From assembly GCA_951406725.2 (NCBI GenBank), contig OX597815.1, forward strand, positions 11,098,001 to 11,162,000: a DNA stretch of 64,000 nt, in the 5' to 3' direction. This DNA comes from Octopus vulgaris. Its lineage: Eukaryota. This document shows, piece after piece, positions 4,858-61,677 of this stretch (its first letter is position 1; the number at the start of each line of letters is the position of its first letter). A program made the position numbers and the translations under genes. The notes under the pieces are model-generated. The model ran no database searches. It saw nothing but the letters and a program-made list of their open reading frames with translations, and was not told where the DNA came from.

Positions 4858-6546
4858 GAAGGTATAACGAAAAAGAGTTTAATGCTGAGGCTGACTGGAT
4901 AGAACGTGAGAAAGAGAGACTGGATGAACTTGAAGAACAGAAATGGGAAGCAATAGGAATAGAGGAGCTAAGGTGTGTCCTTAGGAAGGCTCATAATGGA
5001 AAACCCCAGGACTGGATCGGATCCCTAACTTCTGGCTGAATTGTTTGACAGAATACACGAACATCTCGCTGCATCTGTCTGATATACATCATGCTACTAT
5101 GAAGGAAAAAATAAGAAAGGAGTACTATAGGAGAATAAGGCTTGTACTGAAGACTGAACTCAACTCCAAAAATTGCATTGAGGCCATTAACACCCTGGCA
5201 CTTCCAGTAGTCCAGTACAGTTTTAACATCATTAACTGGAACCTTACGGAACTCCAACGCTTGGACAGGAAGACAAGAAAGTTACTGACATCCAGGAGCA
5301 TGCACCACCCTAAGGCAGATGTAGACCGCTTGTACCTACCTAGAAGCAGCGGGGGGAGAGGAATGATGCAATTGGAGCTGTGCTATAAGACCTCTACTGT
5401 AGGAATGAACAGGTACCTATCTAGTACAAACGACTGGATGCTGCGACTTGTGTGTGAACACGAAAGCAGCAAAAAGCTGCATTCTATTGTCAAGGAAGCT
5501 TATAAGTTCGAAAGGGAACTAGGCATTAACCTTGAATCAGGTGAAGAGCCAGAAACCACTGCTACCAAGCAAGCAAAGCGAATCAGGCAGACTGCAAAAA
5601 AGAATGGGCAGAATCAAATTGAGAGGCGGTGGAGCCAGAAGCCCCTGCATGGACAATACATTCTCCGAAGCCAAAATGCTGATGTAGACCAAGCAACAAC
5701 CCATCAGTGGCTGAAGAGTTCTGGATTGAAAGCAGAGACTGAAGGCTTCATAATGGCAGCACAAGATCAAAGCTTGTTTACCAGAAATTACCAGGCTAAC
5801 GTTCTCCGAAACGGTACTGACCCTAAATGCAGATTCTGTGACACATTTGACGAAACAATAGACCATCTCGTTTCGGGATGTCCTGTGCTGACACCAAACG
5901 AATACAAAAATCGCCACGATAGGGTAGGACAGTATATACATTGGAAGATATGTAAACACTACAAATCCGACACTCCTGCTAACTGGTATGAACACCATCC
6001 TCAGCCAGTTGTTGAAGGTAAAGATGTCACCATCCTCTGGGATTTTCCAGTCAACACTGACAGAACGATCAAGGCTAATCGACCAGACATAATTGTTAAA
6101 GACAGGGAAGAAAATACCTGCAGACTAATAGAAGTAAGCGTCCCCACTGATAAAAATGTATCTGTCAAGGAATTTGACAAACTTAGTAAATATAAGGACC
6201 TGGAAATCGAAATACAGAGGATGTGGAATCTTAAAACAAAAACTGTTCCTGTTATTGTAGGTGCCCTAGGTATGATAAAAAAGGGATGTCAGAAACACCT
6301 AGACAATATCCCTGGAAAACCATGTCTCAAGGAAATCCAAAAGATTGTGCTAACAAGTACTGCCCACATCCTTAGAAAAACCCTATCAATGTAAATGTTT
6401 GTGTTTGTATTACATGGAGATATTTCTCTACTTCCCCTCCCCAAGCTTTCAGCTATATTTCAACAACTCTTAACCTTCACTTGCCCTAGGGCGCTGGGTG
6501 TGCCCCGGCAGGTGATTGCATCAAACATGCAGATTAAAAGTAAATG
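4858..6546 (+). mobile_element. R4/Dong-clade non-LTR retrotransposon (family A), RT core missing, 3' UTR ending in (AAT)n
   Basis: Pre-RT motif WKTPGLDRIPNFWL (frameshifted, ~4995-5040) joined to post-RT region; CCHC knuckle CRFC..H....C; RHD; restriction-like endonuclease RPDIIV..LIEV..KLSKY. Confidence 0.9.
5045..6394 (+). CDS. Open 449-aa C-terminal part of R4/Dong polyprotein (thumb, zinc knuckle, PD-(D/E)xK endonuclease)
   Basis: HHPKADVDRLYLPRSSGGRG, ETEGFIMAAQDQ, ILWDFPVNTD, VPVIVGALG; no stops; TE-derived and probably not independently expressed. Confidence 0.85.
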   Translation: MTEYTNISLHLSDIHHATMKEKIRKEYYRRIRLVLKTELNSKNCIEAINTLALPVVQYSFNIINWNLTELQRLDRKTRKLLTSRSMHHPKADVDRLYLPRSSGGRGMMQLELCYKTSTVGMNRYLSSTNDWMLRLVCEHESSKKLHSIVKEAYKFERELGINLESGEEPETTATKQAKRIRQTAKKNGQNQIERRWSQKPLHGQYILRSQNADVDQATTHQWLKSSGLKAETEGFIMAAQDQSLFTRNYQANVLRNGTDPKCRFCDTFDETIDHLVSGCPVLTPNEYKNRHDRVGQYIHWKICKHYKSDTPANWYEHHPQPVVEGKDVTILWDFPVNTDRTIKANRPDIIVKDREENTCRLIEVSVPTDKNVSVKEFDKLSKYKDLEIEIQRMWNLKTKTVPVIVGALGMIKKGCQKHLDNIPGKPCLKEIQKIVLTSTAHILRKTLSM

Positions 6547-7847: not shown

Positions 7848-8910
7848 AATAATAATAATAATAATAATGAGATAGAGATCAATGGAGCAACAACAGTAGA
7901 AGTGAAAGAATTTTGGAAACAAATATAGTTAGCGTCGGAACGACCTCAGAAAAGATATATCAAAAACAACGAACACAGCACCTGAACAACTCTAGACCCC
8001 TATAATAACTGAAGACGCCACCCAAGTACTGCAAAAACTAAGCATCTGGAATGTACATGAGAACGACATGATCTCCAACAGATTAAAATACCTACCAGGA
8101 ACACACAAAAAGCTGGCTGAGAAATTTATTGAAATACTAGCAGATGTCTGAATGGTTCACGGAAGGGAAAAACTATCCTAATTCCCCAATCTACTGAAAC
8201 GGCAACCCCATAAAAGTATAGACTGATAACTTGACTCCCTAAATTTTACAAAACCTTTACTGAAAAAATATCGCAGAGAATGAGCAAACATCTGGAAGAA
8301 AACAACCTGTTTCCAGAAGAGCAGAAGGGATGCTGCAAGGGCTCATACTACCGTAAAGATCAGCTACTGATTAATAAAACCTTAATTGAAGACAGCTGCA
8401 GAAAGAAGAAGGGTCTAAGTATGGCCTGAATCGATTACCGAAAGGCTTTTGATAGTATTGCCAACATATGGACCCTAGAAATAATAGCCATGAACAAAGT
8501 AGCCCCAATAGTCATAAGAATTATAAAGCATTCCATGAACAAACGACAGACTGTGCTACAGCTCCAGACAAAAGAGGGATTCATAAAAACCAAAGCCATC
8601 CCCATTAGAAGAGGAATATTCCAGAGAGACACGCTCTCTCCACTCCTTTTCTGCTTGGCACTGACACCCTTATTTGACATTCTAAACAGAACTAGATGTA
8701 GATACAACTGTTACGGCAAAACAATCAGCTGCCTCTTATACACAGAAGATCCCAAACTGTACGCTACAAATGATAAGCAGCTGGAAATATTACTACAAAC
8801 AGTACATGGATTTACCAAAGAAATAAACATGAAATTTGACTTAGAAAAATGTGTCAAGGCAACCTTGAGAAGAGGAAAACTAGTTAAGAGTAGCAGTATT
8901 ACACTAGATA

Positions 8911-9315
8911 GGCGCAGGAGTGGCTGTGTGGTAAGTAGCTTGCTAACCAACCACATGGTTCCGGGTTCAGTCCCACTGCGTGGCATCTTGGGCAAGTGTC
9001 TTCTGCTATAGCCCCAGGCCGACCAAAGCCTTGTGAGTGGATTTGGTAGACGGAAACTGAAAGAAGCATGTCGTATATATGTATATATATATATATGCGT
9101 GTGTGTGTATGTGTGTCTGTGTTTGTCCCTCTAGCATTGCTTGACAACCGATGCTGGTGTGTTTGCGTCCCGTCACTTAGCGGTTCGGCAAAAGAGACCG
9201 ATAGAATAAGTACTGGGGCTTACAAAGAATAAGACCCGGGGTCGATTTGCTCGACTAAAGGCGGTGCTCCAGCATGGCCGCAGTCAAATGACTGAAACAA
9301 GTAAAAGAGAAAGAG
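8911..9315 (+). mobile_element. SINE family S1 (tRNA-like head, internal TA/TG microsatellite, GTAAAAGA tail)
   Basis: GGCGCAGGAGTGGCTGTGTGGTAAG..GGTTCAGTCCC..GCTCCAGCATGGCCGCAGTCAAATGACTGAAAC; multicopy in window. Confidence 0.92.
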
Positions 9316-12060: not shown

Positions 12061-12901
12061 CTGAAAACTGATAAGATACGCATAAAAACCTCACAGAAAT
12101 ACTCCTTTCTACTATAGGCAAAATCTGAAATATTATAGAGGGAAGTAGTCAATTATATCTACTCCAGCGACTCAAGTGGTACTTATTTCATCAACCCTGG
12201 AAGGATCAAAGGCTAAATAGACCTCGATGGCATTTGAACGCTGAAACCTCGCAGTAATAAAAGTGATTATTTATCTAAAAACTTAGATAATATAAAATAT
12301 GTACTATTTATAATTCCAATCGTACCCCACACCCAAAGATAGAGCCAACTTATAATAAATTCGTAAAAGATTTCTCGATTAATAAATCGCAAGTTTTCTA
12401 ATAACTGTGTATTGATATTTTCACCACAGGGACCCTCACTGGGAGACTTTTCATAGAATTTTTCACATGAAATTTTTATAGAAACTTTTCCGCAGAAAAT
12501 CACTTAATCAATAGAATTTGTTCTATATAAATTCTTATAAATTTCAATCCTTATTTACACAATGCCATAAGAATAAATGTTACTGCCAAGTTCAAGACAT
12601 TTGAAATCCGAACAGACTACATATGTGTATATAAGAAACTTTCAAATATCATATTGCCAGCCATCAGATCAACGGGAAGGAGAAACTCCGAGTAGCATCT
12701 CACACAAAGTAAAATTTGAACGAGTATAATTCCACCCTAACCAGCATTGTTCAATACTTCATTTCGTTTAGTTATATTCCAATTCGGTGAGATTCTAGTC
12801 ATTTACTCACGCGCGCACATATGCAAAAATATGTATTAATGAAATATGCGTGTGTGTGTGTGTGTGTGTTTGTGTGTGTATGTGTGTGTGTATTGGATTA
12901 C

Positions 12902-13137
12902 CTATTTCTTTAGTACCCACAAGGGACTAAAACACAGAGGAGACAAACAAGGACAGACAAACGGATTAAGTCGATTATATCGATTATACCAGTTATGCAC
13001 TGGTACTTAATTTATCGACCCCGAAAGGATGAAAGGCAAAGTCGACCTCGGCGGAATTTGAACTCAGAGCGTAACGGCAGACAAAATACGGCTATGCATT
13101 TCGCCCGGCGTGCTAACGTTTCTGCCAGCTCGTCGCC
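12902..13137 (-). mobile_element. SINE family S3 (Meta/MESC-like central domain)
   Basis: Reverse strand GTCGACTTTGCCTTTCATCCTTTCGGGGTCGATAAATTAAGTACC; tail TAAAGAAATA. Confidence 0.9.
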
Positions 13138-15232: not shown

Positions 15233-15650
15233 GGGAAAATCTTTTCGATTTGAACGGCAGTTTTTTCTAGCGGTGTCATATGAAATTGTCACCCATAATT
15301 ATAACCCTAGAATTGATCTATTGCATTTCAATCTCTTTTAGGGTTAGGTTAGGGTATGGGAAGGGTATCTTTTTTTCTTCACAAATGTAAATAAACCCAA
15401 TCTGTTTCTTAAACGAGGGACATATTCATACGGCACATAATGCTTTTTAACTCAATAGACGTCACTGATTGGTTGAAATTGCAGAAATTGAAGAAAAAAA
15501 TAACAAATATCTTACAAACTATAGAATTTTCTCAATAAAGCCAAGAGAAAAATATGTTTTATAAACACATTCTACCAGTATACGAAGTTTTAAATTTTTT
15601 TAGTTACCTAGAAATTATGTTAAAAACCGCCGTTCAAACCGAAAAGATCC
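15233..15650 (+). mobile_element. MITE with GGATCTTTTCGGTTTGA TIR and internal TTAGGG repeats
   Basis: Right TIR CGTTCAAACCGAAAAGATCC; left TIR damaged; imperfect TSD TGAAATAG/TAAAATAG. Confidence 0.85.
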
Positions 15651-21893: not shown

Positions 21894-22123
21894 TATTTCT
21901 TTACTACCCACAAGGGGCTAAACACAGAGGGGACAAACAAGGACAGACATAGGTATTAAGTCGATTACATCGACCCCAGTGCGTAACTGGTACTTAATTT
22001 ATCGACCCCGAAAGGATGAAAGGCAAAGTCGACCTCGGCGGAATTTGAACTCACAACGTAACGCAGACGAAATACCGCTAAACATTTCGCCCGGCGTGCT
22101 AACGTTTCTGCCAGCTCGCCGCC
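21894..22123 (-). mobile_element. SINE family S3 with 16-bp TSD
   Basis: TSD TATTCTGCTCAATACC at 21878-21893 and 22124-22139. Confidence 0.95.
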
Positions 22124-22807: not shown

Positions 22808-23791
22808 TAAAGCAAAACAAAAAAAAACTGTTCTCAGTATTTAAGGAAGCTGACGAATACAAACAAGAAATCATACTACCTAACAAATATGAAGAAGAAG
22901 AAGGAACAACAAAAGCTATAAAACAAATGAAATCCAAACTAAAACTAGAACAGCAACGGGCCATGATAAAACGGTGGCAAGAAAAGCAAATACTGGACTA
23001 AACTAAATGCAAAAGAAATAGACAGAAAAATCCCAGCAATGTTTGAGAAGCTCAGGATTCAAAGCAGAGACAGAGGGATTTTTAATTGCAGCACAAGACC
23101 AAAGCCTCCCCACCAGAAATTACCAAAAACATGTAATGAAAAGAAATATAACAAGTAACTGCAGAATATGTGGAGATGGACAAGAAACAATAAATCATAT
23201 TATCTCTGACTGCCACGACAGAGTTGGGATCTACATACACTGGAAGCTATGTCAACACTATGGAATAACAACAGAAAAAAGATGGTATAGGCACACACCA
23301 GAAAAGGTCACATTAAACGAGAAAGCAACCATACTCTGGGATATGCCAATACACACAGATACAGAAATTAAGGCCAAAAGGCCAGATGTGGTTGTCAGAG
23401 ATCATGAAGAAAAAAAAATGCTTCCTAATTGATGTATCAATACCAGCAGATGACAACGTGTCTCTAAAAGAAATGGAGAAAGTTTCAAAATACAAGGACC
23501 TGGAAATAGAGGTAACCAGAACGTGGAATCTAAAAACAGAAACAATTCCTATCATAGTAGGTGCATTAGGCATGACAAAAAAATATTCAGACAAATACAT
23601 AACAAAAACACCAGGACTTACAAACACATATAACATACAGAAAATTGCACTACTAGGCACTGCACACATCCTACGCAAAACACGTTCAATACAGTAACCA
23701 TCAGAGCATCACAACAAATCACAACTCATACCCAAGGTACACAGAGCTGCGCTCGGTAGTGAAGTGAAAGCACGCTATGAAAATAAAACTA

Positions 23792-25619: not shown

Positions 25620-26054
25620 GGATCTTTTCGGTTTGACCGGCAGTTTTTTTCTAGCGGTGTCATATGAAATTGTCACCCATAATTATGACCCTAGTATCGA
25701 TCTATTGCATTTAAATCTGTTTTCGGGTTAGGGTTAGAGTTAGGGTTAGGGTGAGGGGAAGGAGGAAGGGTATATTTTTTTCTTCACTAATGTAAATAAA
25801 CCCAATCTGTTTCTTAAACGAGGGACATATTCATACGGTACAGAATGTTTTCACCTCAATAGACGTCATTGATTGGTTGAAATTGCAGAAATTAAAGGAA
25901 AAAACGACAAATATCTTACAAACAATAGAATTTTCTCAATAAAGCCAAGAGAAAAAGATGCTTTATAAACACATTCTACCAGTATACGAAGTTTAAAAGT
26001 GTTTAGTTACGTGGAAATTATTTTAAAAAACTGCCTGTCAAGCCGAAAAGATCC
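25620..26054 (+). mobile_element. TTAGGG-MITE, complete, 8-bp TSD
   Basis: ~30-bp TIRs; TSD CTGATTCC at 25612-25619 and 26055-26062. Confidence 0.95.
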
Positions 26055-27031
26055 CTGATTCCTCTCGTCGCTTATGCTGGTAATATCAGAAAAACAGTCG
26101 TCTATCTGATCTCTGACTTGCTTTCGTTAACCTCAAGTGAATACAGCAATCGCCATGTTTCACTTGGTCAGTGATTTCTCTCGATTACATGCCGTCAGTT
26201 TGGACTCCTCTATGAAAAAAAAGAAACTGGTGGGAACATTAACCTGCCAAAGTAATAATAAACAAAGTCCTCATCATTTTGGGAATTTTAGTATTGAAAC
26301 TGATCGGGAAATTCCAGCCAACAGACCAAATATCGAGATCAAATCATGCAGGCAAAACATACGAAGGAGCGATGCAGCTAGGCAGTCAGCAAAAAAGTGT
26401 AAATTATCCCGACCAAAAATGTGTATGAATTAGATAAATGTGTCAAGGCAAATTAACTTTAACTGAAAGCATAAAACTCAATACAGACGAACAGAGAATT
26501 ATATCAGAGTAATCCAAACAGATATCTTGAAGTAGACACAAAATGATCGAATTCAACATGCGTTAAATGAATGAGACAATTAGATTTCTTCGTGTATTTG
26601 TTGCGATATCTATTATGGTGTCTGTGCATATGCGTTGAGGCTGGATTAAATTAGCTAAAGTGATTTATTGAATGTTTTTCTAACATGATGAGATACCTAA
26701 TGACATAAAGAGGAAGTTAAATTAGCAAATGCAAGTGTTTCAGATTATTTACGGTTAGTTATGTCCTTGAATAATAAATATTAGTCTAAATAGATATGAG
26801 CAGTTCATAAGATAATATGCACAAGGCTGTATAATATTTCCATAACGGAGTATCATAAGGTGAGCGAATATGTATATGATAGACAAAATAAAGCAGAAAA
26901 GAGGTACAAAAAATTAAAAAAATGGTCAAGCTAGTCATAGAAAAAGTAAGACAGACCTAGAAGAAAACGTACGAAAATGAAAGAGATTAGATATTTTTAC
27001 AAAATAGATCTTATTTTACAGAGGAATTAAT

Positions 27032-27459
27032 GGATCCTTTCAGTTTGAACGGCAGTTTTTAAAAATAATTTCCACGTAACTAAACACTTTTAAACTTCGT
27101 ATATTGGTAGAATGTGTTTATAAAACATCTTTTTCTCTTGGCTTTATTGAGAAAATTCTATAGTTTGTAAGATATTTGTTGTTTTTTTCTTCAATTTCTG
27201 CAATTTCAACCAATCAATGACGTCTATTGAGGTAAAAAAAATAACATTCTGTGCCGTATGAATATGTCCCTCGTTTAAGAAACAGATTGGTTTTATTTAC
27301 ATTTGTGAAGAAAATAAGATACCCTTTCCCCCACCCCTAACTCTAACCCTAACCCTAAAAGAGATTGAAATGGAATAGATCGATTCTAGGGTCATAATTA
27401 TGGGTAACAATTTCATATGACACCGCTAGAAAAAACTGCCGTTCAAACCGAAAAGATCC
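27032..27459 (-). mobile_element. TTAGGG-MITE, complete, opposite orientation
   Basis: Both TIRs present; CCCTAA tract ~27334-27358. Confidence 0.93.
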
Positions 27460-27999
27460 GATATTTATACCAAATATATCTTATTTTACAGAAGAATTAA
27501 TTTGTTCCAGCTATAAAATCTTCAAAACTGGCAAACATTTCCAATGTCTTCTTGGACATTATTATGTTTGCTTGATCGTTGCTTTCACCACTTTCAAATA
27601 TGCTCTAAACCCCAAGGCTACGATACGTTAATAGTTTTTCATTTATGTCTATCTTTTCCCTTTGATTAACTTTAATATTCCTGCAACTTTCTGTTGGCAT
27701 CATTTTGTCCACCTTATTACACGTTTATGTGTGTATTGTTCACAAATTACCCGTTGAATCGATTAAACGCACAGACACACACACACATACACACACACAC
27801 ACACACGCAGACACACACAGAAACACAAACGCAGACGCACGCGCACGCACGCATACATATTTGCTTGCTGTACTATGTATGTGTATTTGTGCATATGTGC
27901 ATGAGTGCATTTCTGTGTATACAGATATATTTTCTTGTTTAAGTAGGTATATATGCATATTTTATAAAAAAAAACGTCAACAGGATTTGTTCGGTTTGA

Positions 28000-28049
<50 letters not shown>

Positions 28050-28054
<5 letters not shown>

Positions 28055-29880
28055 CTTTATTTTGGCACTACGGCCACAACACAGAGGGGACACTACAAAG
28101 AGAGACACAACACGACAGTGGGGACAAAAAACATAAAACGAATGAAAATGAGATATTATATAAAAATGAAAAATGAAATGGCTGCATGGGCTCCATTCCC
28201 ATGCAGTATCATTTGAACGTTTATATAAAATATTTACAATCGTTCTATTATCTTATTGTTTTTTTTCTTAATCTCGTTTTCTCCTCTTTTTTTTAAAATG
28301 AAACAATTTTACTTTTTTCCTTTTTTCTTCAATAAAACAACTTTAGGTTTCCTTTTTAATATCTCATGAAAGGTTCTAAATCTTTTAGCTCCACTACAGG
28401 TGGCAATTCATCACTCCTGGCAGGACAATCCCTTCTCCACACATGTCTTTTAGTCTAGTATAGGTGTCTTTGTCAACCACGGTGGTCTTCACATTCTCGG
28501 AATACACATCCGTGGGCAACTTTATACTCTTATAATATGTTAAAACTTTAATACTTTCTTTTCAGTTTCTTTGCTTTTTGCGTACGTCACAAAATGCCAT
28601 CGAAATTTTCCCTTTCTTATTTGTTTTCTCTTTTCCTGCTCCGCTCCTGGTACCTTCTTTTCTTCCACCACTCTGAACAGTCTCTCTACTTGCGTTTCTA
28701 AATTTTCTTCCTCCACCGGAACAACTTGGATCTTCACCAATGTCTCTTCCTCAAGCAACCCCTCCTTGAACACTTCTTCAAGTTCCTTTTCGCTTATTTC
28801 GTTCATTTTATCCACCAACATTATGTCTTCCTTCCTTCTGGTCTCCTCCTTTTCCATTTCTTCTTTCTTCTTTTTCTGCTTCTCTGGCGGAGAGCTAACT
28901 CTCCCACTTCTCTTTCTTTTCTTTAACACCGTGAACCCATCCTCCGTTGCTTTCTCCTTTATCTCAACCTGTATCACCTGGTCTGTGCTCTTCTGCCTCT
29001 CCGTCTGCTCTATTTGTTGTTCTCTCTGGGGGCACCTGGCCTTCATGTGGCCCTTTCCACCCACATGTATAACATACAGGCAGCCTGCTCTCCACAACCA
29101 CTCTCAAACTTACGTCATCGGCGGCACTATCTCTTCGACAACTCTGTTTAGGTCTTCACTGTTGCTTGAACGCTTAACTCTATTCCATACCCCCGGTAGT
29201 TAACTGTTTGGGTTCTTGTGGCCTTCATTATCTTGGCCTCCACACTCATGTCATGCATTGTGTCTGTCATCAGCCATACTTCTATCAGTTCTGGGGGCAC
29301 TTTGCCAACTCGCACCCTGGTCACACGTTTGCCACAGTACAATGGCAAAAGTACCTATTTTTCCGATCTTATTGCCTCCGTAGAGTACTTAATTGCTTCC
29401 TCTTCTGATGCAAAATGCCCCTCCACATTAGCGTACTTTCTCCCTCTTGTTATAAATGTGGTTAGTCTTTTTATATTCTTCAGACAGTCTTCAATAGCCT
29501 CAATTGTTGCTATTTCTATTTTCCCCGTTGCCATCTTCGTTGTCTTGTATATCATCATTCTTCTCATTACGTTGGTTGTAAGTTCCACAGGTGGCGTTAA
29601 TTTCAGTGTATTTCCGTCTCTTTCCAGTAACTTCTCGCATTCCTTCATTTTTCCTTGTTCAACCTTTATTTCACGTGCTTCCAGCGTTTCCGAGTCTATC
29701 ACTTTTCCAGTTGTAGCCGCATAGCTGTGGTCACCTGCTGGCGTTTTCTCCATTTTTCCCACAATGGGGGAAAAAAACAACAATTCAAAATAACAATTTG
29801 AACAGTAACAATCAATCAAACAAATACTTAATACTATGACTTACGTCTAACACGACAAAAAACAACTGAAACCGCCTGTG
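28050..29880 (-). mobile_element. ORF1(gag-like)-only retroelement A, frameshifted ORF 29753->28356
   Basis: MEKTPAGDHSYAA, TRGRKY, RVRVGKVPPE, knuckle CL..H..KGHMKARCP, K/E-rich tract, DELPPVV then stop, ~300 nt UTR ending TAAAGAAATA. Confidence 0.75.
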
Positions 29881-29915
29881 ACACAAACCTCCAGCCAAGG
29901 CAACACCAACGTCCT

Positions 29916-31613
29916 TATTTCTTTAATTAGGCACAAGGCCTCAATAGAGAAGGGACAACACAAAAACAGACAAAACAATACATTGGGGCACATAGAAACA
30001 CATATCGAATGAATTATGGATATAATGAAAATGAGAATGTAAAGGCTTACCTACCATCCATAAGCAGGTAGTTCCATATTACTGTTTTTGAATGAACAAT
30101 TCATATCGGTCTTGTATCTCTCGGCTTATAACATATACTCTATTAACTCTTCGAAGGCCACCACCGGCGGCAATTCGTCGTAACCAATTTGTATACCTGT
30201 CATCTCTATTATTTCGCCAAACAACTCCTTTAGTTTCTCTCCTCTTTCTTTTCTAACAAAACAGCTTTGAAACCTTCGTTCTACTCTTTGGCCGCTAATT
30301 TCACTCTGATAATGTTCTTCAACTTGGCAATTCTCTTCTCTATCTCTACACTTTTTGGGTATTGTGCCACTGTTCTTACGTTTTTTTTCTTTTGGGTGTC
30401 ACTCTCCTTCTCTCTTCATCAATCCTCTCATCTGCCGCTGGCATTCCTATCTCTGTCTGTCTATCATTCTGTGTTACTATCATCTCTCTTTCATTTTCCT
30501 TTCTCTTCTGTACTTTCCCTCCTTGCTAGTTGATGGTCTCTGCGTTCGCTCCTCACTTACTTTTGTTGTCTTTTCATTTTTTCTCTTCTCATTTGTATTC
30601 TCTTGTTTTTCACACTGCTTCTCCTCTCCACTTGCCTTTATTTTCTTCCTCGAACATTTTGGTGGTTCTTTCTTTATACCACTGTATATTGCTCTTCCAT
30701 TTTCTTCTTCTCCTCCACGGTTGCGTAATCTCCCAGCTATTCCTTCCCTGTCTCCTCCTCTCTATGTTTCTGGGGACACTTAGCTTTCATGTGTCCCCTT
30801 ACTTCACAAAGAAAACATAGAGGCGGTCTTCCTTCCACCACTATTCTCAACCGTGCTTCGTCTGGCAGTATCAGTTCTTCTGCTATCTTGAGGAGGTCTG
30901 GCAAGTTTATATGAACCAATACCTGTAGTCCATACCCCCAACAGTTCACCTCCGATAATTTTAATATTTCAGTGTCTTCCTCTGTGTTGAAGAGGATGGC
31001 TGCAACTAACCACGCTTTATCAATTTCTGGAGGAACTCTACCCATTCTTACTCTGGCCGCACGTTTGCCACAGTAAGTCGGTAGTAGTGTCCACTCTGCT
31101 GATCTCAAAGGCACAGTAGATTATTTTCTCGATTCTTCACTCACGAAGCGTACCTCCACTGTGCTGTATTTCCTTCCTCTGGTGTAATATGTCGTTACAT
31201 TCTTAATTTCTCTCAGGAACTCCTCGACCGCTTCCACCGCTGCTATTTCCAACTTTTTTTATGCAATATTCAATGTTCTGTACACAATTGTTTCGTTCTC
31301 CGTTTTTCTAACACTTCTTTGGGAGCCGTCAGCCTCAGGCTATCTCCCACCTTTCTCAATAAATCGTTATGTTTCTTGAAATTTTTCTCCTGTAATTTCT
31401 GCAGTACTTCCGCTGACAGGCTTTTGCCAGTCACCGCAGCATAACTGCCCGCTTGCACTGGTGTACCTTCCATATTGTTCACAACTTCACGCATAAATAG
31501 TGAAGAAAATTTAAAAAACGGTAACAACAATCAAACAATTCAGTAAATAACAGTAAAACAATAACAGTACTCTCATGGAGCGTATGCACTTACGACTCAA
31601 CAGGTTCAAATAA
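29916..31613 (-). mobile_element. ORF1(gag-like)-only retroelement B, frameshifted ORF 31473->30126
   Basis: MEGTPVQAGSYAA, TRGRKY, RVRMGRVPPE, CFLCEVRGHMKAKCP (CX2CX4HX4C), DELPPVV then stop, UTR ending TAAAGAAATA; TSD-like AACACCAACG. Confidence 0.8.
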
Positions 31614-31623
31614 AACACCAACG

Positions 31624-31940
31624 ACAACGTCAACCTCCTCTCAACGATTGGCCGGAGATGATTTTTAAAATGAGAATATCTGAAATAAACTCGACTGCTC
31701 TTACGAGAACACTAAAAATGAACCCAACCGTTCTCAAAAATTAAGTAAAAAAAAATCTAGAATCCTTGTCCGATACCTGATCGATCCCCAAATCTAATCA
31801 GTTCGTGCCAGTCACGAGGCCAAACATCCTTGAGAGTTTCATCCGAATCCATCCAGTGGTTCTTGAAATATCTTGGACATGGACAAAAAAATACAACTGA
31901 AAACAATGCCTCCGACCTCGCTATGGTGGAGGTAAAAAGC
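31624..31940 (+). mobile_element. Helentron/DINE-like non-autonomous element; its left end is at 29881-29914
   Basis: Homologous to 55478-55688 and 56336-56532; terminal hairpin CCTCC..GGAGGTAA. Confidence 0.55.
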
Positions 31941-32059
31941 AACGCCACTACTCGTATACATGAAAATAACAATTTCTAAACATACGTAGTGCAACACACA
32001 CACACGCACGCACGCATTTGCACGCGCGCACACAAAACATTTGAAATGATGAAATACGT

Positions 32060-32442
32060 TAGGAAATAAATAAGAATTATATCGCAGTAAGATGAGTTCT
32101 TGTCACGAAAGATGTTAACTACTGTGTGAGGGTTGGTGTTGGAATATTAGTTGATGCAAGAGTAGTTAGTCGGCACTAAGCTGTCAGCTCTGAGCTGATT
32201 GTAAACTGACTCCTTCACGTTTAAGTTTTTTATCAGCAAAATCTTGAAAACCTTTCTCTTTAGCACTTTAGCAATATTCTTTGAAATCAGATTAAGTGGA
32301 GTTGGAATTTCCACATTACCATTTGTTTTCTCAGTTTTTTTGTTTTTGTTCTAACAACATCGACTTCTCTTTCGATAAACTTTCTCAATGGGACATCAGC
32401 AACTCAACCACATCATCTTGTATGACTTCTTCAAACCCTACA
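32060..32442 (-). pseudogene. Tigger/pogo-like transposase C-terminal remnant
   Basis: GVGFEEVIQDDVVELLMSH*ESLSKE..LLEQ resembles the acidic Tigger C-terminus. Confidence 0.55.
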
Positions 32443-32982
32443 CCATCTGCAATGTGGGTTTCTACCGAACGGCTACTGTCACAACTTTGGAGAGTACAGC
32501 TGTCAGCCGAATAGATTATTAAGATCGTTTCGCTGTCGCCACTAAAAGGACAAGAGAAATTCTGCTTTCTAGCCGTAATAGCCATAGCGAAAGAGATGAT
32601 ATGGAAAACACTTGGAAGAGGTATCGCATCAGGCACCTTCGTCTCCGGGCATGCTTTGGTTAACCTCTTTTTATATCACCTAAGAAGGAAAGCATGTCTG
32701 GAGAAGAAATGCCTGACGGCAAAACTGTACCAAAAGGGATGGAAGAAAGTAGCCCAAATGTTGGGTATGTAAGCACCTGATTAAGCGGAGTAAAAACAAA
32801 GGGACGAAGTAAGCGGTTTAACGCAAGAATGTAGTTGGTGGGGTCATTAATTTTCTGTTTTTCATTTTCATCTGAAATTATAATGTATTTATTCATATAT
32901 GTAATATCATTCGATAAGCCCCCGACCCCATTTGTCTCGTGTATTGTTCCCACATCGCTTAACCCTTGTGGTTTGAATAAAA
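32443..32982 (+). mobile_element. Tx1/L1-like LINE 3' end (ORF2 C-terminus plus UTR)
   Basis: ERLLSQL..FLAVIAIAKEMIWKT..SGHALVNLFLYHLRRK..LYQKGW; UTR ends CCCTTGTGGTTTGAATAAA; CCATCT on both sides. Confidence 0.6.
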
Positions 32983-33130
32983 TCCATCTTGCTAGTCCCG
33001 CACTTTATGAGCTGGAGTTCAAAGTTTACAGTTCGAGTTAGCGTGTTGGATTGTTGGTTCTTAAAAAATTGTTGTCATATTCCGTGTGGTTACTGCCGTT
33101 TGTTTCGATTATATTGTTATTACACTGTAG

Positions 33131-33362
33131 GGCCACGAGCTGGCAGAAACGTTAGCACGCCGGGCGAAATGCGTAGCCGTATTTCATCTGCCGTTACGTT
33201 CTGAGTTCAAATTCCGTCGAGGTCGACTTTGCCTTTCATCCTTTTGGGGTCGATAAATTAAGTACCAGTTACGCACTGGGGTCAATGTAATCGACTTAAT
33301 CTCTTTGTCTGTCCTTGTTTCTCCTCTCAGTGTTTTGCCCCTTGTGGGTAGTAAAGAAATAT
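33131..33362 (+). mobile_element. SINE family S3 with ~18-bp TSD
   Basis: TSD ATATTGTTATTACA(C/T)TGT. Confidence 0.93.
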
Positions 33363-33936
33363 ATATTGTTATTACATTGTGTATTCTTAGGTAATTGGGT
33401 TGGTTTCCTGCCAATTTGAAAGCCCGTAGAGATAGTTGTAAATACGCAGTTCATTGACATCCGAACTAGGCTGTTTATCACTATCTCTTACTTGATGGCA
33501 TTTTTGCGCGCGTGTGCCTGATTTCTGAATGCAGAGAAAGGGAGAGAGAGAGAGAGAGAGAGAGATGAGTGTGAAATATGTATTGGGAGAGAAGGCATGT
33601 GTGGGAGAGAGACGGAGAGAATAAAGTAATTTTGATTGTCACTCTATTTGTATTTTATATCATTAAATGAAATTGAAAACAAATAGAGAGTATAAGCAAA
33701 ATACTTTTGGCAGCCTAATTGGTGTCCGATTAAAAATATTTACGCTAACTAATTCAACGACTTCTCGTCATATGTAAACAGAAACTACCTTAGTAGATTT
33801 ATTGATCTATCTTCAAATGTAAACAAAATTTATCAGACATTTCACTACATTAGATAGTTTCACTAATTTACAAAAATTGAGTACATACATTTATTGAGGC
33901 TTAGCATTACTAAACGTTTTTGTCTAGCGAAAAATA

Positions 33937-34389
33937 GGATCTTTTCGGTTTGACCGGCAGTTTTTTCTAGCGGTGTCATATGAAATTGTCACCCATCATT
34001 ATGACCCTAGTTTCGATCTATTGCATTTCAATCTGTTTTAGGAATAGGGTTAAAGTTAGGGTTAGTTAGGGTTCGGGTTCGGGTTAGGGGTGGGGGAAGG
34101 GTATCTTTTTTTTCTTCAGAAATGTAAATAAACCGAATCTGTTTCTTACACGAGGGACCTAATCATACGGCACAGACTGTTTTCACCTCAATAGACGTCA
34201 TTGATTGGTTGAAATTGCAGAAATTAAAATAAAAGAAAACAACGAATATCTTACAAACTATAGAATTTTCTCAATAAAGCCAAGAGAAAAAGATGTTTTA
34301 TAAACACATTTTACCAGTATACGAAGTTTAAAAGTGTTTAGTTACGTGGAAATTATTTTAAAAAACTGCTGGTCAAACCGAAAAGATCC
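33937..34389 (+). mobile_element. TTAGGG-MITE, complete, 8-bp TSD
   Basis: TSD GAAAAATA at 33929-33936 and 34390-34397. Confidence 0.95.
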
Positions 34390-34539
34390 GAAAAATATAA
34401 TAGCGAGTATTTTGTATTTTATAATTTCTATCTTTGAAGAGGGTAATAAGGGGTACTCCTTCCAAACTTCTTTTCATTTATATTTCAGATGATGCAGATG
34501 GAAATATATATGTGAGTGATATATTAGTTTCAAATTTTG

Positions 34540-34712
34540 ACACGGAACCAACAATTTCGGATGAATGGGTAAGTCGATTACATCGACCCCAATGCTCAAC
34601 TGGTAATTATTTTATCAATCCCAGCGGCATTTGAACACAGAACGTAAAGTTGGGAAAAGTGCCGCGAAGTATTTTATCCAGCGCGATAACAATTCTGCCA
34701 GCTTGCCACTTT
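34540..34712 (-). mobile_element. Old S3-related SINE
   Basis: AGTCGATTACATCGACCCC..ATTTGAACACAGAACGTAA..TTCTGCCAGCT. Confidence 0.6.
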
Positions 34713-35862: not shown

Positions 35863-36125
35863 ATCTGCAGAATCCTGGGTCGCTTCTTTCAGATTGGCTA
35901 TGTCCATTCCAGTATCACTCCTGATGGTGTCAAGCCAGCGGGTTCTTGGTCGGCCTCTTCCTCTCTTGCCACTGACCATTCACATCATGATGTCCTTCTC
36001 CAGGGATTTTCTCCGCATAATATGCCAATCTATGCTTGGTGATCCTAGCTTCTAGTGATATTTTCGGCCTGATCTGCTTAAGAACTTCTCCATTGGTGAG
36101 CCTCGCTATCCATGGAATCCGATAA
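35863..36125 (-). pseudogene. RTE-clade LINE C-terminal fragment
   Basis: RIPWIARLTNGEVL..GKRGRGRPRTRWLD. Confidence 0.85.
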
Positions 36126-36539
36126 AAGGGTAAACATGCAAAACTGAATAAGATGTTATTGTAAAATTTCGGTTTCTTTTTTTTTTGGGGGGGGGGGGGG
36201 TAACCCCTCATATTCAGGTTCAAATATTTGTGCATATGCAAGTGTAGGAAGAGATGCATATATGATAAATAACTGTTTCTTTTTAACGTTTTAGTTAAAA
36301 ATCTTTCCTACGCAATATTGTTATATTCTTGCACACTCAAGTCATCTTTATCGCTCTTGCCGTTCACCACTACTTTACTTTTGATTACATCACACTCACA
36401 CCGCTTTCACCTCCTCACATACCATCTCATAAATCAAGCAATTACACTTCCACACCTATGTTTACCCTTCACTCACCTACGCCACTGTACTTTCACACTT
36501 TTACACGTACACACATATGCATACAGTACTTTAAAGCAC

Positions 36540-39710: not shown

Positions 39711-39930
39711 TATTTCTTTACTACCCACAAGGAGCTAAACACAGAGGGGACAAACAAGGACATACAAACGGATTAAGTCGATTATATCGACCCCAGTGCG
39801 TAACTGGTACTTAATTTATCGACCCCGAAAGGATGAAAGGCAAAGTTGACCTCGGCGGAATTTGAACACAGAACGTAACGGCAGACGAAATACGGCTACG
39901 CATTTCGCCCGGTTCTGCCAGCTCGCCGCC
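39711..39930 (-). mobile_element. SINE family S3 with 15-bp TSD
   Basis: TSD AATATAATTGATATA. Confidence 0.92.
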
Positions 39931-44026: not shown

Positions 44027-45588
44027 GGATATGCTCAATCACCTTCCTGAAACAATAAACAAAAACACCCTACTAGTATCCTTCGATATAGTCAACCTAT
44101 ATTTTAATATCTCCCACAACCTAGGAATAGAGGCAATCCAATTCTGGCTAGAGAATTACGCCAACAAACTCTCACATCACATCAAAAAAGAATTCGTGGT
44201 AGAAGAGCTAAAATTTATCTTGGAGAATAACTACTTCGTGTCCGAAGACAACTTCTATCGACATAAATCGGAGACTGATATGAGTACAAGGCGGCGAGCT
44301 GGCAGAAACGTTAGCACACAGGGCGAAATGCTTAGCGGTATTTCGTCTGTCGTTGCGTTCTGAGTTCAAATTCCGCTGAGGTCGACTTTGCCTTTCATCC
44401 TTTCGGGGTCGATAAATTAAGTACCAGTTACGCACTCGGGTCAATGTAATCGACTTAATCCGTTTGTCTGTCCTTGTTTGTCCCCTCTATGTTTAGCCCC
44501 TTGTGGGTAATAAAGAAACAGATATGAGTACAAGAATGACCCTCACCTTTGTTAATCTAGTCATGGGATATCTAGAAATTAGACTTTCTGGTAAGGTTTT
44601 AGAAAAATACAGCAGCCCATTCTCCTCGTACATTGAAAATAACTGGAAGAGATACCTGGATGACTGTTTCATTCTTTGGCATGAAAGTATAGAGAAACTT
44701 AAAGATTTTCAAGCATTCGTAAATGGACTTGACGTGAACATTCAATTCACGATGGAATATTGCCATGAACAGCTTCCCTTCTTCAACATCCTCATTAAGA
44801 AATCTAACAACGTAATAGAAACAGATATATACTATAAACCCACGGACTCCAAGCAATATCTACTGTTCAACACATGCCACCCCAGACACAACAGAATGAA
44901 TATCCCCTTCAACCTAGCAAAAAGGATATATACTATAGTTTCTAATGCAAGCACCAGAGACACACGACTAGATGAACTAAAGGATACACTCATCACCAGG
45001 AACTACCCACCTTCACTAATTGACATATGCTTTCAACGTGCCCTACAACTCAACATCCACGAACTCAGACATCCCATATTAAAGAAGGATTTACAACCAA
45101 AAGCCCTGCCATACATCTCCACACACAACACTCTTAACAATGAAGCCTTCGACACCGTCCTTCAAAATATTCCCCTGCTAAAAATGGACCACAAAATGAA
45201 ATTAATCCTCCAAACGCACACCATCATAAAAAGCAAAAGACAGCCCGAATCCATGAAAAGTCTCCTAACAGAATCCCGAATACACTCAATAACAACACTG
45301 AAGCTGTCAGTAAAAAAATGCAGAAGACCCAACTGTGGGATATGCGTCCATTTAATTGAGGGATCAGAGTTCTCCTTCAAACAGGGACAACGTTTCACAG
45401 TGAAAAGCAGCTTCACATGTTCTTCGGAGAACCTGACATATGCACTAACATGCTCTGGGTGTCAAGAGCAATACAGAGGCCAAACCCAAAAAGGTTTACG
45501 TCAAAGGATGGCTCTGCACAGATCCCAGATCAAAATTCCCAAAAACAAAAATAGCATTCAGCCCACACATCGACATTTGAACCAATAA
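44027..45588 (+). pseudogene. Penelope-like element (Neptune-type) RT plus GIY-YIG endonuclease
   Basis: LVSFDIVNLY, WKRYLDDCF, TDIYYKPTD..CHP, Cys linker CRRPNCGIC, FTCSSENLTYALTCSGCQEQYRGQT..LRQRM..H. Confidence 0.92.
44290..44520 (+). mobile_element. SINE family S3 inserted in the Penelope RT, 14-bp TSD
   Basis: TSD GATATGAGTACAAG at 44277-44290 and 44521-44534. Confidence 0.95.
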
Positions 45589-50979: not shown

Positions 50980-51872
50980 TTGACTCCGGGAGGATGATAA
51001 GCAAAAATCGAACCCAGAGGGATTTCAACGGAAAACATAAAAACATAATTAAGTCCAGTGCTTTATTGATCGCCAAAATCAGTGCTAACAATAAATAATT
51101 ACTATTTCCAACAGTAGCATTCTGCGCACATTTTAATGGGTAGTGGTGATGGCGGTATTATTGATTAAATGATTCCAGTGTTTACTGGTATTTATATATA
51201 TGTTTTCGATCCCGCGAGGATGAAAGGTAAAAATGGATACCAAAGGAATTTGAACTTAGAAAATAATGGAACATAATCTAAGTATTGGAAATAACAGTAA
51301 AAGTCATTGATTTCCTCACCACCGAAATCAGTGCCAGTACAATCCTTTCTACTCTCAGCAGAAGGTCTGAAAACCGAAGGAAGGAACCAATCGATTACAT
51401 TGTTACTTATTTTATCTCCGACAGAATGAAAAGCAAAGTCAATTTTGGAAAGGCAGCAAGTCGATTACATCAACTCCATTATATAACTAATACTTATTTT
51501 ATCGACCCCAAAAGGACAAAAGGCATAGTCGACCTCGGCGGAATTTGAACTCAGAACGTAAAGGCGGACGAAATGCTGCTAAGCATTTTGTCCGGCGTAC
51601 TAACGATTCGGCCAACTGCTTAATGTCAGTAATAATAATAGTTCTTTCTATTACAGGCTCAAGGCCTGAAACGTAATGCTGAGAGGAAGGATAGTCGATA
51701 GCATCGACCCACCCCACCACGTCCTTAACTGGTACTTGTTTTATGGACCTCGTAAAGAATAAAAAGCAAAATCGATTTCGATGGAATTTGAACTCGGAAC
51801 GTTAAGACTGGCGAAATGTGCCGCAAAGTATTTTGTCCATTTTTGCTGACGATCACGCCAGCTCGCTGCCTT
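50980..51872 (-). mobile_element. Cluster of old, co-oriented S3-related SINE remnants
   Basis: Repeated ATCGACCCC..GGATGAAAGG..GGAATTTGAACTC motifs and TTCTTTCTA..AGGCCTGAAA tails. Confidence 0.65.
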
Positions 51873-51959: not shown

Positions 51960-52191
51960 GGCGGCGAGCTGGCAGAAAAGTTAGCACGCCGGGCGAAATG
52001 CGTAGCGGTATTTCGTCTGCCGTTACGTTCTGGGTTCAAATTCCGCCGAGGTCGACTTTGCCTTTCATCCTTCCGAGGTCGATAAATTAAGTACCCGCTA
52101 CGCACTGGGGTCGATGTAATCGACTTAATCCGTCTGTCTGTCCTTGTTTGTCCCCTCTATGTTTAGCCCATTGGTGGGTAGTAAAGGAATA
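51960..52191 (+). mobile_element. SINE family S3 with 19-bp TSD
   Basis: TSD TATAATCAAGTCT(C/T)GAAAG. Confidence 0.93.
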
Positions 52192-55477: not shown

Positions 55478-55688
55478 TAAGAGCACTCAGCGCAAATCTC
55501 CGCCAAGACTACACCAACGTCCTCTCAACGATTAATCGGAGATGGTTTTTAAAATGAGAATATCTGAAATAAACTCGACTACTCTCACAAACGAAAAAAC
55601 TAAAAATGAACCCGACCGCTCTCAAAAATTAAGTGAAAAACCGGAAAAATAATCCAGAATCCTTGTCCGGTACCTGATCGATCCCAAC
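55478..55688 (+). mobile_element. Helentron/DINE-like element, left part
   Basis: AAGAGCACTCAG..CTCCGCCAAG start; matches 31630-31790. Confidence 0.6.
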
Positions 55689-55945: not shown

Positions 55946-56335
55946 TAAAGCTTCCTTTAAGGCAGAGCTAGAAATGCAATTTTCAAGTAGGTAAGAGATT
56001 TTAAATAGGAGCGATATATTCAAAATTAGTAAATTAAAAGTTCTCGAGGATAAATTAAATTTATTATTGTTACTCAATATGTTGGTGTTATTTAATTTCT
56101 GAACGGTCTTGTTGCTAATTGTTTATGTAGTTTGATTTCTTTATCTATGAGTTTCTACTAAGATAGAGACCCGAGTAAAATAATAATGGAGAAACGAAAA
56201 TAAAACTTTGGAAATAGAAATGCCGCCATAAATTACGTGGAAGCTATAAGCATGCTTTCAAGAAAGATAATCAGAGAAAGACTTGAAAGTCAACGTAAGA
56301 TCGTAAGTAATGCTTCATGTAAAGTAAATATAGCA

Positions 56336-56532
56336 AATAATCCAGAATCCTTGTTCGGTACCGGATCGATTCCAAAATCTAATCACTTCGTGCCAGCCAC
56401 GAGGCCAGACATCTCTGAATGTTTCATCCGTATCTATTCAGCGGTTCTTGAGATATCTTGTCCACGGACAAACAAACAAACAAACATGAGACTGAAAATA
56501 ATGCTCCTGCCTTCACTCAGGCGAAGGTAATA
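56336..56532 (+). mobile_element. Helentron/DINE-like element, right part
   Basis: Matches 31755-31940; ends CCTTC..GAAGGTAAT. Confidence 0.6.
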
Positions 56533-57060
56533 ATTCTTTCTACTGTTGGCACATGGACTGAAATTTCGGAGGAGGGTATAGTCGATTACAATTACCCCAG
56601 TATTCAACTGGTACTTAATTTATCGACCCTGAAATGGTGAAAAGCAAAATCGACGTCGGCGGAATTTGAACTCAGAAAATAAAAAAAATAAACAGTAATA
56701 GAAGGAGAAAAATCTTCCGAAAGATGGCATATAAATCCATTAAACTTTTTTCATCTTCGATCTCAATGTTTGTTTATATCTGATGTCCCGGATACGAAAC
56801 GTGGCACGAAAGTCAGTGCTGGCTATAATTTCTATAGAATACCTTAAGGATAACCTTAACAAGAGGATGATATATTTATATACATACACACATATGTGTA
56901 TGCATATATCTGTCTACACACACACACACATTTTTACGTCCATATACATACACACACGCGTATATGAAATAGTTTGAGATTCCATTTTATACAAAAGGAA
57001 AGACAATACAATAATAAGATGGAACAGAAATATTCTAGACACTTAAACACACACACACAC

Positions 57061-61446: not shown

Positions 61447-61677
61447 GGCGGCGAGCTGGCAGAAACGTTAGCACACCGGGCGAAATGCTTAGCGGTATTT
61501 CGTCTGCCGCTGCGTCCTGAGTTCAAATTCCGCCGAGGTCGACTTTGCCTTTCATCCTTTCTGGGTCGTTTAAATAAGTACCAGTTACGCACTGGGATCG
61601 ATATAATCGACTTAATCCATTTGTCTGTCTTTGTTTGTTGTCCCTGTGTTAAGTCCCTTGTGGGTAGTAAAGAAATA
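61447..61677 (+). mobile_element. SINE family S3
   Basis: Full-length; AAGAATGTGCTT on both sides. Confidence 0.92.

Follow-up and report, generated by a model that had tools for sequence, protein, structure and literature searches.

The locus described here raises the question of whether a retroelement can persist with only half of the coding capacity of a long interspersed nuclear element (LINE) and, if so, whose enzyme copies it. In a 64,000-nt window of the Octopus vulgaris genome (contig OX597815.1, positions 11,098,001 to 11,162,000), two related elements, designated A and B, are both on the minus strand and arranged head to tail, with B upstream of A (Table 1; all coordinates are those of the window). 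On balance, we regard A and B as decayed copies of two multicopy families of ~1.7-1.8 kb that encode only the first LINE open reading frame (ORF1), and likely as half-LINEs that use a borrowed LINE enzyme. That an ORF1-only retroelement lineage of octopods is real, with a 3' tail that lacks poly(A) and is shared with a short interspersed nuclear element (SINE), is well supported.

Two diverged ORF1-only elements

An initial annotation of this DNA had described two diverged ORF1-only elements side by side, and our analysis bears this out. Each contains one decayed ORF of ~450-465 codons, and all of the motifs listed in that annotation (SYAA, TRGRKY, RVRxGxVPPE, a CCHC zinc knuckle, a K/E-rich linker and a terminal DELPPVV) are found in both, the knuckle being intact in B and split by a frameshift in A. 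The ORF of A is interrupted by one in-frame stop (29355-29357) and by frame changes near 29157, 29120, 29059 and 28523. The 5' untranslated regions (UTRs) are ~130 nt (A) and 157 nt (B) in length. The 306 nt (A) and 210 nt (B) that follow the stop codon contain no stop-free frame longer than 67 and 45 codons, respectively, leaving no space for an endonuclease or reverse transcriptase (RT) in either element. The extent originally given captured the pair but not the whole of B, whose 5' end is placed at 31630 by its target-site duplication (TSD) rather than at 31613.

The likeness of A and B is well beyond chance: tblastx gave an E-value of 4e-33, and in a separate alignment of the ORFs 119 of 246 residues are identical. 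The 3' UTRs are identical at 150 of 203 nt (0/1000 shuffles equally good) and the 5' UTRs are weakly similar (4/1000 shuffles equally good). Since the 5' and 3' ends of each element resemble one another no better than shuffled sequences (61/1000 and 198/1000 equally good), a long terminal repeat (LTR) element was rejected. Terminal inverted repeats were rejected as well. The lack of LTRs also separates A and B from the TR-GAG type, which comprises gag-only LTR elements. None of the RT-type ORFs in the window itself shows genuine similarity to A or B (best E 0.099), and an Rfam search over 27900-33500 returned nothing above the gathering score.

Copy number and insertion site

Contigs from 4 of 23 runs, one for each of four organism labels, were aligned to the window. 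This comparison took in copies at least 80% alike; the individual pieces and loose ends counted below are the 32 listed out of 19,591 and the 24 listed out of 2,608, respectively. Both elements are multicopy: every bin was covered in every run, and a base other than that of the window was present at 39 of 40 listed sites, in 2-27 distinct contigs per run. In run X2, the same interval was overlapped by three different contigs. Divergence was 10-16% in the 27 non-identical body pieces. Five pieces for B and two for A bridge from coding sequence over the stop into the 3' UTR, none of the listed loose ends fell at either stop, and depth was about flat across the bodies, without a step at the stops. 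Frame-changing indels at 28523, 29059, 29156, 30514 and 30576 are present in about 1/4 to 3/4 of the depth, so several of the ORF breaks are specific to the A and B copies rather than to their families.

The DNA on either side of B is a single copy of an abundant repeat, R. The 9-bp TSD inside R indicates that B was inserted as a 1715-nt unit, and empty-site joints from 29915 to ~31655 are present in contigs of all four runs. R, whose ends we take to be Crypton-like, reaches a summed depth of about 7e5 (three runs) and has further copies at 55493-55685 and 56335-56476. A starts 32 nt past B, where the same copy of R ends. Among the contigs, the joint 29954->31668 reveals a further B-type tail within R, and the joints 29106->28061 and 28199->28078 mark other loci at which a 3' end is closely followed by a 5'-truncated copy (two tandem pairs). 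Tandem insertion or a target preference could possibly account for these arrangements. Elements of the Tx1 clade are often target-selective; non-autonomous DNA transposons are among the sites they use, and tandems of SINEU-3 are found in a target of this kind (PMC4494074). As regards target preference, A and B share one copy of R and another B-type tail lies in R, while the seven SINE copies described below have unrelated flanks. Given the great abundance of R and the position of the SINE copies outside it, A and B may also be neighbours by chance. The last ~120 nt of A (28046-28168) reach ~10 times the depth of the A body, with one class of loose ends that has a different terminus; this excess may come from numerous copies truncated at the 5' end or from a different element with the same end, perhaps the partner.

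Selection on the ORF and the predicted protein

Over 246 codon pairs in seven separately aligned blocks, A and B differ at 36, 29 and 58% of codon positions 1, 2 and 3, respectively. This corresponds to a pN/pS of 0.45 (bootstrap 0.37-0.54), with dN 0.42 and dS about 2.4, which is near saturation; the blocks were picked by protein alignment, which lowers dN somewhat. In shifted frames the pattern is gone (pS 0.35-0.37, pN 0.42). Purifying selection acted on the ORF as A and B diverged, in keeping with the ratio below 1 between families that the initial annotation had proposed as a check, and the protein therefore mattered in the lineages leading to A and B. The constraint may go back to a time before ORF2 was lost.

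A phmmer search with the N-terminal 201 residues of A recovered at least 246 representatives of relatives clustered at 50% identity (E<=0.001; 150 of the 246 listed). Word-index protein searches for longer relatives gave no match; an exhaustive search succeeded. Among 30 relatives looked up, the 17 with a species name are all from octopods (O. bimaculoides, O. vulgaris, O. sinensis and Argonauta hians), and five further named relatives are from O. bimaculoides. The lineage had been called cephalopod, which should read octopod. Intact CCHC knuckles occur in 15 of the 150 listed relatives. No endonuclease or RT domain was detected in 25 relatives scanned, although ORF2 would be a separate protein anyway, and the same 25 gave no Pfam match to Transposase_22 (E<=0.05). 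A search of viral contigs yielded no relative (0 of 17). In a scan of JGI metagenomes, one locus was left from 49 candidates; it resembles a bacterial oxidoreductase gene and matches by chance. A tree of 31 core-covering rows from 160 profile matches is deep and poorly resolved.

Several individual relatives are of interest in their own right. P0093 is intact (603 aa) and lies on a 2209-nt contig, and the P0150 cluster has five members on contigs of mostly 1946-1948 nt; these sizes fit an ORF1-only unit, though the source contigs are generally short. P0125 (O. sinensis LOC115225585) has a long branch, an altered knuckle and a host-gene annotation under three RefSeq accessions, making it a possible domesticated ORF1, parallel to ZCCHC3. 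In P0007, P0050 and P0073, pieces of ORF1 are joined in octopus gene models to host parts with WD40, LDL-receptor-A or coiled-coil features; these models are probably mis-built, and possibly represent exonisation.

A structural model of P0009 (mean pLDDT 78) places domains with the RNA recognition motif (RRM) fold at residues 47-134 and 135-217, ahead of the knuckle. Its matches include the RRM of La (Z 8.9, rmsd 2.7, 82 aligned), and those listed of its 67 Foldseek matches (E<=1e-3) are tandem-RRM proteins; no L1 ORF1p structure is among the fold matches listed. The knuckle itself matches Pfam zf-CCHC at E 0.03, below the Pfam cut-off, and a search of PDB sequences with the core returned zinc-knuckle matches only. 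A layout of two RRMs and then a CCHC knuckle matches the type I ORF1 that PMC4120745 and PMC5203782 attribute to Khazina and Weichenrieder. Beyond the linker, a domain of ~80 residues is common to A, B and five or more relatives; a model based on a 10-row alignment gives it a small, generic ferredoxin-like fold (best structural match Z 7.0, rmsd 4.9, 78 aligned), for which Foldseek gave no match at E<=1e-3 and the PDB sequence search nothing significant. The A/B product is thus predicted to comprise two RRMs, one CCHC knuckle, a K/E-rich linker and a small C-terminal ferredoxin-like domain. The similarity to Tx1/L1 ORF1 anticipated earlier is favoured by this modelled type I fold, whose look-alikes include ZCCHC3-type proteins: a cluster of these, with two RNA-binding domains (RBDs) and a CCHC knuckle, has an Atlas score of 0.90 (ranks 10 and 5). 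ZCCHC3 has been linked to the ORF1 of Tx1; the accessible text of PMC10351740 does not contain this link. As a lead only, the single knuckle and the ZCCHC3-type look-alikes point to Tx1/L1.

A 3' tail shared with a SINE

Both elements end in TAAAGAAATA, as the initial annotation had observed, but this terminus is not unique to them. It occurs eight times in the window against 0.57 expected, and five of the six matches outside A and B are ends of an abundant SINE, two more copies of which end in near-matches. The initial annotation had not noted that the tail is shared with a SINE. The likeness between A, B and the SINE extends over ~58 nt (0/2000 shuffles equally good, also when the last 10 nt are left out). 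All seven SINE copies end without poly(A), directly on a TSD of 10-18 bp, and the TAAAGAAATA end of B likewise abuts its TSD without poly(A). A SINE and its partner LINE often have a common 3' tail that is recognised by the RT (PMC4824008). The shared tail without poly(A) suggests one RT for A, B and the SINE, which likely copies all three in trans.

The SINE copies are 87-94% alike pairwise, suggesting that the SINE spread at about the time A and B did, or slightly later. A tRNA-like head is called by ARAGORN with relaxed settings in four of the seven copies, and we take the central block to be CORE. By eye, the SINE TSDs (at 12903, 21894, 33361, 39711, 44520, 52191 and 61677) tend towards T-A-(A/T) at positions 3-5, a tendency not seen in the TSD of B. 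Older copies with the same head and body and another tail lie at 56530-56677, 51640-51802, 12100-12245 and 34520-34703; their tail is weakly like that of B in two of the four (0 and 5 of 1000 shuffles equally good). Since the same SINE head is found in the window with two or more types of tail, tails have been swapped in this genome. Dong/R4 was rejected as the tail donor, two Dong ends in the window being unlike the tail (316-878/1000 shuffles equally good).

Weighing the explanations

Multiple copies, the TSD of B, selection and the predicted fold support the earlier proposal of a non-autonomous, ORF1-only LINE-type lineage. If A and B are half-LINEs, an internal promoter within the 130-160-nt 5' UTR would drive transcription of a full-length master copy, and the ORF1 protein, for which the modelled domains suggest an RNA-chaperone role, would coat the RNA and help it into the ribonucleoprotein particle of an autonomous LINE. 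One tail-recognising LINE RT/endonuclease would then prime reverse transcription on both the half-LINE and the SINE, and insertion leaves a 9-18-bp TSD, as seen for B and the seven SINE copies. The lineage is probably derived from Tx1/L1, and ORF2 would have been lost once from an ancestor of this type, before A and B split.

A number of observations weigh against this account. The annotation had expected many copies with TSDs and no ORF2, which the copy number, the continuity from stop to terminus and the TSD of B support, but no TSD was detected for A, and beyond A the end of R is missing. No contig piece covers a whole element. More distant subfamilies, evident from loose ends at 30765 and from peaks of depth in the conserved RRM/CCHC regions, could carry ORF2. 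The same selection signal would be expected if A and B had autonomous parents. Folding of the tail is no better than that of shuffles in four of five sequences, leaving a conserved tail hairpin unsupported. The ZCCHC3 RBD families (RBD_ZCCHC3) are absent from the 25 of 40 Pfam families listed, and an Atlas score of ~0.9 amounts to no more than a lead for the Tx1/L1 assignment. Finally, no autonomous LINE with this ORF1 or tail was found, in searches short of the whole genome.

The most serious alternative, unlikely in our view though by no means negligible, is that A and B became ORF1-only through two independent deletions of ORF2 in two related autonomous LINE lineages. HAL1 arose several times independently in mammals (PMC5753468), an RT that recognises the tail would conserve the 3' UTR in both parents, and the selection could stem from those parents. 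The 3' UTR of B aligns with that of A from the first bases past the stop, which argues for a single deletion, although the sequence after the stop is ~95 nt longer in A. Neither element has kept a long frame after ORF1, and A and B group together in the ORF1 tree, albeit weakly (86/58). The shared architecture had been taken to argue against independent deletions; we infer that a single loss of ORF2 is favoured, short of a demonstration.

A broader reading, to which we give only a small chance, is that the whole octopod family lacks ORF2 throughout and had its tail grafted from an unrelated, possibly ORF1-less LINE, forming with that LINE and the dominant SINE a split three-part system. Slightly more doubtful still is the version in which an old ORF1-only lineage had no cognate ORF2 parent and, with a tail from an unrelated, possibly single-ORF LINE, is half of a split system. 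The number of clusters with long branches and the swapping of SINE tails are consistent with this version, as is a repeat library of O. bimaculoides in which complete ORFs were present only in an RTE and a Dong element (PMC9115989). The Dong 3' ends in the window, which are unlike the tail, do not fit it. Elements moved by RTE usually have short tandem repeats at their end, which A and B lack. L1-Tx1 is also reported to be expanded in coleoids (PMC8967140), and a cognate parent may thus exist.

It is very improbable that A and B are not self-propagating and arose as processed retrocopies from domesticated, ORF1-like host genes (one or several), comparable to ZCCHC3: some relatives, such as P0125, are annotated as host gene models and purifying selection is compatible with a host gene, but retrocopies of this kind are at odds with the lack of poly(A), the exact terminus in common with the SINE, and the existence of two divergent multicopy families with hundreds of divergent relatives, mostly fragments. 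The view that A and B are strays with internal deletions, from ordinary full-length LINE families in which the remaining copies have ORF2, is largely contradicted, despite the small share of pieces and loose ends sampled, by the flat depth and by the seven listed contigs, 10-16% diverged, that run straight over the stops into the 3' UTR, and has the least to recommend it.

Comparison with known systems

The ORF1-only strategy itself is already known. HAL1, HeT-A (Jockey clade) and Ag-Sponge (CR1 clade) have been named 'ORF1-present bipartite non-autonomous LINEs' (Kojima 2018, PMC5786205), and A and B show three features of this class: homology to a LINE type I ORF1, no ORF2 before the terminus, and multiple copies with, in the case of B, a TSD. 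Like A and B, mammalian HAL1 is non-autonomous, encodes ORF1p only, keeps both LINE ends and is multicopy with TSDs (Smit 1999; Bao and Jurka 2010; as given in PMC5753468 and PMC5786205). Unlike HAL1, whose ORF1 is of the Transposase_22 type, A and B have a type I ORF1 with an extra C-terminal domain, a specific tail without poly(A) in common with a SINE, and a mollusc host. A 3' poly(A) tail is a trait of the L1 family, and membership of A and B in HAL1 was rejected on the ORF1 type and the lack of poly(A). HeT-A and Ag-Sponge also have ORF1 only and need a partner RT, and multimerisation with partner proteins has been proposed for them (PMC5786205), whereas A and B are dispersed and, as far as seen, non-telomeric. 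Type I ORF1s of Jockey, CR1 and L2 mostly have three CCHC knuckles (Metcalfe and Casane, PMC4120745) in contrast to the single one of A and B. Closer in layout are Tx1-clade ORF1s and ZCCHC3-type proteins, in which a CCHC knuckle comes after a pair of RNA-binding domains, and RRM/zf-CCHC ORF1s of non-mammalian animals are consistent with Tx1 (PMC5203782); A and B, having no ORF2, offer no RT for placement in that clade.

The tRNA-like head of the window SINE recalls, by description only, the octopus tRNA-CORE SINEs OR1 and OR2 (Ohshima and Okada 1994, cited in PMC4758252 and PMC4824008), for which the accessible parts of those two papers name no partner LINE. A literature search over listings and the openings of abstracts gave no octopus or mollusc ORF1-only LINE; Repbase and published octopus repeat libraries, which lay outside this search, may hold such families as 'Unknown' or L1-Tx1.

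Other features of the window

Besides R and the SINE, the window contains a ~430-nt miniature inverted-repeat transposable element (MITE) with 29-bp terminal inverted repeats and an interior run of telomere-like hexamers (27032-27460, 25620-26065, 15239-15650 and 33930-34389); a 23-nt piece of the MITE end lies beside the (TA)n of A. Retroelement fragments, some with RVT_1 and zf-RVT matches, are located at 4997-6394, 8430-9011, 23022-23697, 44497-45588 and 35930-36307 and are presumably Dong/R4-like, Penelope-like and RTE-like. The SINE copy at 44295-44520 is inserted in the Penelope-like ORF, and the RTE-like fragment at 35930-36307 is cut before its end.

Table 1. Positions of elements A and B, their parts and associated repeats in the window.
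Feature	Position	Strand	Description
Element A	28050..29883	minus	~1834-nt ORF1-only retroelement; 5' end approximate
A, decayed ORF1	28356..29753	minus	ATG at 29753, stop at 28358-28356
A, two predicted RRM domains and frameshifted CCHC knuckle	29030..29690 (approximate)	minus	tblastn, model and fold searches of relative P0009
A, conserved C-terminal domain with DELPPVV end	28359..28600	minus	predicted ferredoxin-like in relative P0010
A, 3' UTR	28050..28355	minus	final ~58 nt common to B and the SINE; ends in TAAAGAAATA without poly(A)
(TA)24 microsatellite	28005..28052		adjoins the 3' end of A
Element B	29916..31630	minus	complete 1715-nt insertion with a TSD on either side
B, decayed ORF1	30126..31473	minus	ATG at 31473, stop at 30128-30126; stops and frameshifts
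B, intact CX2CX4HX4C zinc knuckle	30770..30817	minus	motif and Pfam zf-CCHC
B, conserved C-terminal domain with DELPPVV end	30129..30380	minus	comparison with A and relatives
B, 3' UTR with shared tail	29916..30125	minus	
3' copy of the 9-bp TSD of B	29907..29915	minus	flank comparison; empty-site joints
5' copy of the TSD of B	31631..31639	minus	one mismatch to the other copy
Host repeat R, interrupted by B	31631..31935	minus	abundant non-coding repeat
R, continuation between 3' end of B and 5' end of A	29884..29915	minus	window comparison; contig loose ends
SINE, full copy	33136..33361	plus	~225 nt, tRNA-headed; shares 3' tail
SINE copy	21894..22118	minus	
SINE copy	39711..39925	minus	
SINE copy	12903..13131	minus	
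SINE copy	44295..44520	plus	
SINE copy	51965..52191	plus	
SINE copy	61452..61677	plus	

Implications

ORF1-only LINE derivatives have been listed for L1, Jockey and CR1 only (Kojima 2018, PMC5786205), and A and B are a probable fourth source, the first mollusc case within the literature searched, and part of an unusually diversified family. They represent a protein-coding non-autonomous element tied to a SINE by one tail without poly(A), and the 58-nt tail provides a handle for finding the LINE behind a major octopus SINE expansion. Many octopus gene models described as 'uncharacterised CCHC' are pieces of this element. Should the three-part system prove true, the RNA-packaging protein and the enzyme would travel on separate elements, in an octopod family whose diverged ORF1 lineages number in the hundreds and span Octopus and Argonauta. 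The family offers a natural test of why ORF1 stays under selection once ORF2 has been lost.

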